Source: Eledone cirrhosa (lineage: Eukaryota). Taken from it: 64,000 bases of DNA. Numbering within the stretch: position 1 is the stretch's first letter; each line of letters starts with the position of its first letter. The stretch spans positions 52,452,001-52,516,000 of the forward strand of contig OZ024742.1 of NCBI GenBank assembly GCA_964016885.1, given 5' to 3'. The notes under the pieces are model-generated. The model saw nothing but the letters and a program-made list of their open reading frames with translations, did not search any database and had not been told where the DNA came from. A program made the position numbers and the translations under genes. Shown piece after piece: positions 54,949 through 56,432 of the stretch.

Positions 54949-55370
54949 TTAAGTTGATATTGTCCCCACTACTAAAGATAACTATAGTAACTGACCTGTA
55001 GCACGTGTGAATAGGGGGAAATACGTGCGCGAGGCAGTGACCGGTGGTATGAACAGAAGAAGCCGCTAGAAATGGCAGCCTAGCTATTCAATTTATGGTG
55101 CTTCACAGCAGAGAGAACGCAAGGAGGAAATATCATTGAATTACAGGATTATACGCGAGTCCTTTACTCCGTTATTTTACTATATATATATATTATTGAA
55201 TACAATATGTTGAAAGGATAACACACTAGAGACAGAAAGAGATCGTGTGCCATCAATAAAACAGGGAAAACCACCAGTGTATGGAATCTATAACCTATGG
55301 AAGGCAGGGTAGACACAATAATTAAAAATATAAATTAAAATGCATATACGCACCTCTATAACTATATAAC

Positions 55371-55453
55371 ACACGCGTACAAATCGAAAGAGATCTGTTT
55401 CGCCAGGAATTTGTTGATTGAAATGGGATCGCCTATGGGTCATCAGCGCGTGT
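55371..55453 (-). ncRNA. Full type I hammerhead ribozyme
   Basis: Reverse complement of 55758-55840. Confidence 0.87.
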
Positions 55454-55757
55454 AAGACAATACATTCCAGACAACTCTAAGAAAATCTAAGACAACCGTC
55501 CAGCAACACGCGGCAGAGACATGTGACAGCGTCGTGTGTACGACAGTGAACCAGTGGTATCTGAGGGACGAGCTGCTAGAAAGGGCAGCCCAAAAACCAC
55601 TCAAAGAAATGTGCTCAACCAAACAGAAAGAGAGAGGAAAGGAGCGAAATATCACGATAAATTAACCGAGCCATAGACTCTCGTTATTCCCTGTAAATTA
55701 TGTGCTCAAAGGAAAAGGAATCCTGAGCTCTTAGAGTTGTCTGGAATGTATTGTCTT

Positions 55758-55840
55758 ACACGCGCTGATGACCCATAGGCGATCCCATGTCAGTCAACAA
55801 ATTCCTGGCGAAACAGATCTCTTTCGATTTGTACGCGTGT
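55758..55840 (+). ncRNA. Full type I hammerhead ribozyme
   Basis: ACACGCG-CTGATGA-C-CCA..TGG-C-GAAAC-AGATC(TCTTTC)GATTT-GTA^CGCGTGT. Confidence 0.88.
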
Positions 55841-56432
55841 GTTATATAGTTATAGAGGTGCGTATATGCATTTTAATTTATATTTTTAACTATTGTGTGT
55901 CTACCCTGCCTTCCATAGATTCGATACACTGGTGATTTTCCCTTTTTTATTGATGGCACACGATCTCTCTCTCTCTCTCTCTCTCTCTCTCTCTCTCTCT
56001 CTCTCTCTCTCTCTCTCTCTCTCTCGCTCTCTCTCTCTCTCTCTAGAATGTTACCCTTTCAACATATTGTATTCTAAAGAGCTCAGGATTCCTTTTCCTT
56101 TGAGCACATAATTTACAGGGAATAACGAGAGTCTATGGCTCCGTTAATTTATCGTGATATATATATATATATATATATATATATATATATATATTTATAT
56201 ATATATATATATATATATATATATATATATATATATATATATATATATATATATATATATATATATATATATATATATATATGGAAGCCACAAGGAGGAA
56301 GAGGGGATAAAAAAAAGTCCTCAACCCTCCATCCTCAAGCGTGAAACTAATACTTATATCATTTGTACTGCCTCTTTGTTTTTTGTTCTCTGTTCATATA
56401 TATATATATATATATATATATATATATATATA

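Follow-up and report, generated by a model that had tools for sequence, protein, structure and literature searches.

Two copies of a short non-coding repeat, each with a hammerhead motif, lie head-to-head between positions 55198 and 56160 of the window, i.e., the whole 64-kb stretch of DNA analysed here, and raise the question of which RNA template and which route of reverse transcription could have produced them. An earlier note on this DNA had taken the locus for the footprint of a circular or multimeric hammerhead template. We consider it probable that a repeated, non-coding hammerhead unit of 537 bp has been inserted head-to-head into (TA)n, the unit being likely a non-autonomous Penelope-like element of the animal retrozyme type that has been copied by a borrowed Penelope enzyme.

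Layout of the locus

The unit can be divided into three segments, which follow each other on the minus strand in the order B (55732-55649), U (55648-55483) and A (55482-55198) before TA-rich sequence is reached. The plus strand carries A (55729-56074), TA, B (56077-56160) and then (TA)n. The individual features are as follows.

55181..55197, no strand: left target flank, (TA)n-rich
55198..55735, minus strand: left arm, one unit-length copy B-U-A, with its 3' end at site 1 (the A end), followed by (TA)n
55649..55732, minus strand: segment B (84 nt) of the left arm, which forms the 'tail' from site 1 to site 2
55483..55648, minus strand: segment U, 166 nt, non-coding, at the place of the ORF of an autonomous Penelope
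55729..55735, no strand: head-to-head inversion junction, with a 4-nt exact overlap at 55729-55732
55729..56074, plus strand: 5'-truncated segment A of the right arm, in which (TC)n is expanded (about 55964-56043)
56069..56087, plus strand: end-to-start junction from A to B (site 1), gtattc-taa-agagctcagg, family-wide in reads
56077..56160, plus strand: segment B as tail of the right arm, with its 3' end at site 2, followed by (TA)n
56156..56282, no strand: right target flank, (TA)n, in which a target duplication cannot be told

The complete minus-strand monomer ordered B-U-A that had been described earlier is seen at 55732-55198, and the inverted plus-strand A-B copy indeed passes through the junction at 56069-56087, with the correction that B, and with it the footprint, ends at 56160 and not at 56158. 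The 4-nt overlap is common to the A start and the B start, and the inversion point is a near-palindrome. The unit has a GC content of 41%, its segment U is homologous to parts of the relatives at 54.7-55.1 kb and 41 kb described below, and the open reading frame list holds no ORF of at least 120 aa overlapping 55198-56160.

Comparison of the arms has revealed differences at 11 of 278 aligned columns and 3 indels for A (blastn E 2e-109) and a single difference for B (55649-55732 against 56077-56160, 83/84 identical, blastn E 4e-37), without a significant difference between the two divergence rates (p 0.31). The (TC)n of the right-arm A is 66 nt longer than that of the left-arm A. The inter-arm differences cluster in the 3' part of A (2/160 against 9/118, p 0.01, for a split chosen after looking), which simple ageing does not explain. 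Regarding the reliability of the locus itself, an assembly artefact or a later DNA rearrangement could be suspected at such a repeat-rich and microsatellite-rich place, as the inversion junction at 55729-55735 rests on the assembly: it is absent from the 15 of 43 joints listed in the read survey described below, and no contig listed there spans the stretch or contains the inversion. Nevertheless, with 12 differing sites and 3 indels the arms are not one sequence mirrored, the same layout has been found in five other insertions of the window, and the end-to-start junction occurs in two independent read sets. We regard such an origin as very improbable.

The unit in public reads and in diverged relatives

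The region 54660-55760 has been surveyed with contigs of three runs from one sample (X1-X3) and with RAD reads of a second study (X5), of which 2462, 2478 and 2349 contigs and 2627 reads, respectively, have been placed on it. These runs contain at most 34% of the words of the locus copy and therefore mostly report other copies of the family. The listing covers 15 out of 43 joints as well as 24 out of 885 loose ends. A joint from the B start (55732) to the A end (55199) occurs in 5, 4 and 5 contigs and in 238 X5 reads with 21 starts, and three bases lie between its two sides in 227 of these 238 reads. The resulting unit length of 537 bp (534 + 3 junction bases) confirms the approximately 537 nt proposed before. 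Loose ends at 55732 that continue into the A end have been found in 39, 32 and 37 contigs of X1-X3. A joins B, B joins U and U joins A, in agreement with the closed non-coding unit that had been postulated.

The reads also report where insertions stop. Loose ends with (TA)n occur at the B end (55649) in 38, 29 and 28 contigs of X1-X3, and TA-rich ends at the A end (55199) in 116 X5 reads. Insertions begin at two fixed sites about 87 nt apart and not at permuted points, and the expectation of the earlier note that start points would be permuted around a 537-nt circle is contradicted by the reads as well as by the relatives. As a circle and a tandem transcript yield the same DNA, permutation of the start points could not have separated the two in any case. 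Summed over the contigs, the depth amounts to as much as 121,000 for A and 88,000 for B, compared with 4-15 for single listed contigs, which suggests thousands of copies, the depth not being itself a copy number. Between 55437 and 55547 the contig depth drops to 2,000-3,400, with no such drop in the RAD reads, which fits 5' truncation or local divergence. Both arms cover 14 of the listed variant sites, 13 of which have been compared, one X5-only site having been omitted; the arms have the minority letter in common at 10 of these 13, and the right arm carries the majority letter at the other 3. The common minority letters point to one source lineage for both arms.

Shorter variants of the family have also been seen in the reads, namely one in which about 437 bp are skipped between the B end and the last 25 nt of A (55222-55663), and units without the last 62-65 nt of A (joint 55261-55732). 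A pile-up of X5 read ends at 55660-55663 falls on an AATT word and has been taken as the RAD restriction cut and not as biology.

Two diverged insertions are recognisable as relatives, one directly to the left of the locus and one at 41 kb.

54725..55135, minus strand: U-A arm of an older relative, with its end approximately at site 1 (E 1e-23, 64% over 392 columns)
55135..55180, plus strand: inverted B tail of this older relative, ending at about site 2 (score 51, reached by 0/1000 shuffles, the score coming partly from a TA run)
40978..41836, minus strand: distant relative, the 564-bp unit of which aligns with unchanged cyclic order (z 7.9; for U-A 0/1000 shuffles)
41743-41836, plus strand: inverted arm of the 41-kb relative, ending at the site-1 equivalent

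Both relatives (54725-55180 and 40978-41836) have the same two ends with an inner inversion. The distant one comprises 1.37 units head-to-tail and ends at the site-2 equivalent, and its tail compared with B alone has not given a significant match (322/1000 shuffles). For the tail of the older relative a same-strand match is weak (26/1000 shuffles) and the inverted match has been preferred; in other copies this tail is oriented the other way, according to an opposite-strand joint 55135/55181 in the reads. By eye, a short stump at 42769-42990 also contains an inner inversion and shares both of its ends with the 40978-41836 element.

These data bear on a further explanation, in which A and B correspond to pLTR and 5' leader of an autonomous Penelope, the locus being an internally deleted or rearranged stump of it. 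The grammar of the locus is identical to that of the ORF-bearing element at 9328-14028, contigs cover B and the 3' part of A much more deeply than the U-A border, and Xenopus retrozymes match Penelope pLTRs according to a preprint (10.64898/2026.07.22.740005). However, three diverged copies have kept U in colinear form, the largest of the loose ends that fall inside U (341 reads, 55544; among the 24 of 885 listed) is by eye a U variant, and 55198-56160 is devoid of an ORF of at least 120 aa. It had also been proposed that continuation of B into a long ORF of a Penelope-like element in other copies would reduce the unit to an ordinary pLTR plus 5' UTR; among the 24 of 885 loose ends listed, the only unrelated sequence into which B ran was (TA)n. 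A stump therefore appears improbable, and we retain the repeated non-coding unit as the preferred reading.

Hammerhead motifs

Each arm contains one type I hammerhead motif.

55371..55453, minus strand: motif of the left arm, core starting at 55446, predicted cut after 55378
55758..55840, plus strand: motif of the right arm, core starting at 55765, predicted cut after 55833

CUGAUGA, GAAA and GUA are present in both, stem I consists of 7 Watson-Crick base pairs and one G-U, and stem III of 7 bp including A15.1-U16.1. A hammerhead descriptor demanding stems of at least 6 bp has matched twice in 54700-56160 and never in 2000 shuffles. The claim that both copies keep a full hammerhead holds for the 7-bp stems I and III and for GUA, but not for stem II, which is atypical, with a C.C mismatch followed by C-G, C-G and A-U (3 bp) and a long loop. 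Rfam hammerhead models have given no match at the gathering threshold in the whole 64-kb window, and a hammerhead is absent from the 76 hits at E<=10 in 54000-60000; miRNA-like Rfam hits have been dismissed, as they are located on palindromes and microsatellites. Stem II is not closed by G10.1-C11.1 in any of the compared forms, the place being taken by C.C in the 537-bp unit and U.U in both relatives. A U.U stem II base occurs in an axolotl hammerhead for which modest activity is given in the pertinent section of PMC7229834.

The pyrimidine mismatch followed by C-G and C-G at the base of stem II is kept in three diverged copies, and so is the hammerhead pairing despite changed letters. This kept pairing is the best sign of past selection on a putative ribozyme that the sequences offer, the copy at 54.9 kb having lost G12, which is changed to A in the motif of the 54725-55135 relative. 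In the motif of the 41-kb relative, stems I and III measure 9 bp each and the core is U3-A8, a swap that is described for Penelope hammerheads in the corresponding part of PMC4209133. Folding models disfavour the active form, the self-cleavage being putative: the predicted active fold lies 7.7 and 10.8 kcal/mol above the minimum, and the predicted pairing probability of stem I is 0.04-0.24 for the local fold and about 0 when the full monomer is folded. No read-end pile-up at the hammerhead cut site is found among the 24 of 885 loose ends listed. As the two hammerheads of the locus face opposite ways on opposite strands, the locus cannot release a monomer.

In segment U, the 7-nt 3' strand of stem I recurs without mismatch at 55506-55512 on the minus strand, about 60 nt upstream of the core; this second copy could sequester the 5' strand and hold the putative ribozyme off. 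A similar decoy matching at 6/7 positions is seen by eye in the 54.9-kb relative and none in the 41-kb relative.

Two further repeats of the window carry hammerhead motifs. A 468-bp unit at 2308-3170 (minus strand) is present in 1.84 head-to-tail copies with 5 mismatches in 395 and has one motif per copy on the same strand (cores 2637 and 3105) and a predicted circular fold of z -7.2; judged from its sequence, it would be a stronger candidate than the 537-bp locus for a retrozyme that releases monomers. A 534-bp unit at 44347-45217, in 1.4 head-to-tail copies and an inverted arm, its left end differing from its right end, has a minus-strand motif with a long stem II and a predicted circular fold of z -4.2, and shows no significant likeness to the 537-bp unit.

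Template and route of insertion

The arrangement of the locus resembles that of Penelope elements, the standard layout of which is a partial tandem with an inverted 5'-truncated copy and a one-sided tail, as outlined in the structural parts of PMC8557442 and PMC3846280. A partial tandem, an inverted 5'-truncated copy and a one-ended tail have been found here without an RT/endonuclease ORF, and an AT-rich or (TA)n target both at the locus and in the reads. Not every inverted repeat of the window is tailed, the two ends being equal in the palindromes at 17547-18381 and 43523-43698. Regarding published insertions (PMC3846280; PMC8557442; PMC11167929), the features in common, as far as these accounts describe them, are the partial tandem, the head-to-head inversion at a short overlap, the tail at one end, two fixed 3' ends, the AT-rich target and a hammerhead in the repeated end. 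In contrast to the insertions described there, the 537-bp unit has no ORF, its tail measures 84-87 nt instead of 30-40 nt, and its hammerhead has long stems I and III with a pyrimidine mismatch at the stem II base instead of the minimal palindromic form. Hammerhead pairs on opposite strands, 100-700 bp apart, are mentioned for Penelope in PMC4209133.

An internal comparison is provided by four broken Hydra-clade remnants that have been observed within the 64 kb (9328-14028, 14046-15086, 33450-34283 and 37727-40361), the first of which is the most instructive for the present question.

9328..14028, plus strand: broken Hydra-clade Penelope-like element, composed of inverted tail, truncated 3' copy, tail, ORF and 3' copy

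Its second 3' copy ends in a TA-rich run, and it has the same end-to-start junction as the 537-bp unit, with an RT-endonuclease ORF in place of U. The clade is defined by RWK, DKT and CxCX5C and targets (TA)n, according to the classification part of PMC8557442; as read from the translations, RWK and DKT are found in ORF 10770-11279, DKT in ORF 39000-39419, CxCX5C in 4/4 endonuclease ORFs of the window and GIY-YIG at the C terminus in neighbouring ORFs. Pfam has left 8 of 10 ORFs without a hit, all 7 Penelope-type ORFs among them, and a phmmer search of the PDB with one RT ORF has given 0 hits. A minimal U3-A8 hammerhead motif has been noted about 45 nt before the 3' end in both copies of the 9328-14028 element. 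The (TA)n target and the two-ended layout are common to these remnants and the 537-bp unit, and the difference is that they have no sequence likeness to it: six flanking or untranslated stretches, compared on both strands, have remained at z <= 0.5, so that no parent element has been identified among them. The 9328-14028 element exemplifies what is likely the helper class of the unit.

The presence of the same junction in an ORF-bearing element means that the A-to-B junction is no footprint of a circle. The circular or multimeric template that the earlier note had deduced from it is upheld in that the two arms together require the order A-B-U-A and hence a template longer than one unit or circular; the junction as such belongs to the ordinary Penelope layout. 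Both arms can be derived from a linear B-U-A-B RNA of about 620 nt, as they can from a circle, and the DNA of one locus cannot choose between the two. We incline towards an uncleaved linear transcript of more than unit length; a ligated circle seems rather unlikely, and some other route is a fainter prospect again.

In the preferred scheme, a head-to-tail partial tandem elsewhere would be transcribed into an RNA comprising at least B-U-A-B, and a Penelope RT-endonuclease, likely of the Hydra clade, would nick both strands of (TA)n. A first cDNA primed from site 1 would copy A, U and B, i.e., one full unit, and a second one primed from site 2 would copy B and then A. The 3' ends of the two cDNAs would then anneal at the 4-nt overlap (55729-55732) and be filled in, and the tail B would remain at one end only. 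The relevant experiments in PMC11167929 support such steps for an Anolis Penelope, the protein of which cuts and extends both strands in vitro; the tail is explained there as the spacing of two RT start sites, and uncut RNA is given as the main substrate.

The circle deserves closer consideration. A 537-nt circular RNA would arise by hammerhead cleavage and ligation, as in the retrozyme cycle, and reverse transcription from site 1 would run one lap and stop at its own start. Indeed, only 0-3 nt are missing from the left arm for one exact unit (534/537), although the 4-nt overlap can account for this stop as well, and the cleavage site has been read through intact in both arms. The conserved pairing includes a long stem III with which the hammerhead should be functional as a monomer; on the other hand, the opposite strands of the two hammerheads exclude monomer release from this locus, and hammerhead cleavage has been dispensable in vitro for the Anolis Penelope in the assays concerned (PMC11167929). 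The 41-kb relative is 1.37 units long and has a predicted circular fold of z -4.5 (25 shuffles), as opposed to the weak prediction for the locus copy (z -1.46, 25 shuffles). Circular RNAs have been demonstrated for coral, mussel and axolotl retrozymes in the part of PMC7229834 devoted to them and proposed as Penelope templates in that of PMC4209133. An exact single lap is weakened by the 9328-14028 element, the inverted arm of which (9328-9503) covers just 176 nt and starts no more than about 6 nt from the element's own site 1, a sign of a linear RNA with its 5' end at that position and not of a lap.

A different order of events would be a single run, in which one RT copied B and A and then folded back or switched strands to copy B-U-A. 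The near-palindrome at the inversion point and the palindromic centres of the elements at 41 and 44 kb are in line with it, and self-priming on an antisense template has been proposed for Penelope palindromes in the discussion of them in PMC3846280. A fold-back on its own cDNA would, however, give only B and not U, so that a second antisense template is needed, and the run would have to end by chance on site 1, a fixed end in the family and its relatives; in the 3 homologous insertions analysed, left and right ends lie on two fixed sites. For the same reason, reverse transcription around a circle or tandem followed by inversion, as suggested earlier, leaves the far end on a fixed site unexplained, and two separately primed cDNAs account for both ends. 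We consider a single run to be improbable and continue with the two cDNAs as the preferred route.

The 537-bp unit has much in common with animal non-LTR retrozymes (PMC7229834; 10.64898/2026.07.22.740005), which, as characterised in the respective parts of these sources, are short and non-coding, carry one type I hammerhead motif, have a GC content below 50% (41% here) and a head-to-tail junction and co-occur with Penelope-like elements. They make circular RNAs, and a use of Penelope enzymes has been suggested for them (PMC7229834); the 2026 preprint of Li, Clavereau and Pollet derives them from Penelope pLTRs (10.64898/2026.07.22.740005). With 537 bp the unit exceeds the retrozyme size of 150-450 bp given in PMC7229834 and lies inside the range of 51-972 bp given in the preprint (10.64898/2026.07.22.740005). 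Unlike the retrozymes portrayed in these sources, it has no same-strand array of two hammerheads at the locus, short contigs and 150-nt reads being unable to show arrays elsewhere, and it is dispersed, 5'-truncated and inverted, with two fixed ends. MRC1 and other non-autonomous Chlamys elements of Chlamydomonas are likewise non-autonomous Penelope-like units with pLTRs and head-to-tail insertions; they differ in host and clade and have 3' ends that are generally similar to those of their autonomous partners, as stated in the part of PMC8557442 that treats them. A 22-base B pattern has matched neither metagenome nor viral contigs, and no published description of the 537-bp family has been found in the Octopus-hammerhead and cephalopod non-autonomous Penelope literature, Repbase and Dfam lying outside the scope of this search.

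The Penelope layout, the circle hypothesis and the link between retrozymes and Penelope are already published. The regeneration of the more-than-unit tandems of Penelope and the role of its hammerhead are still open questions in the field, and the 537-bp unit is short and abundant, with two sharply fixed ends and a hammerhead motif of conserved pairing. As a doubtful extension, one may postulate a high-copy superfamily of 530-570-nt hammerhead circular RNAs that would be reverse-transcribed by Hydra-clade Penelope enzymes from two fixed sites of the circle, the locus representing exactly one lap. If true, this would directly link the retrozyme circle to the tail-and-inversion mechanism of Penelope and would offer a small system for testing circle-templated integration.

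Several other features of the window have been recorded. Palindromic or inverted-repeat insertions between TA-rich runs lie at 1171-1345, 48670-48783, 56446-56592, 17547-18381, 43523-43698, 57050-57278 and 58942-59021 and are possibly further mini Penelope stumps or MITEs. A SINE-like dispersed repeat of about 190 bp is present in at least 5 copies (23447, 26876, 28612, 54511 and 59920), with further pieces near 5080, 21120, 23289 and 58942. The minus strand contains a LINE-type RT ORF at 19464-20960 (Pfam RVT_1, E 1.5e-27) and an ORF without Pfam hit at 51993-52802. A transposase-like remnant at 32285-33178, which we take to be mariner-like, has inverted ends of about 100 bp, and a 137-bp tandem repeat occupies 61164-61580.
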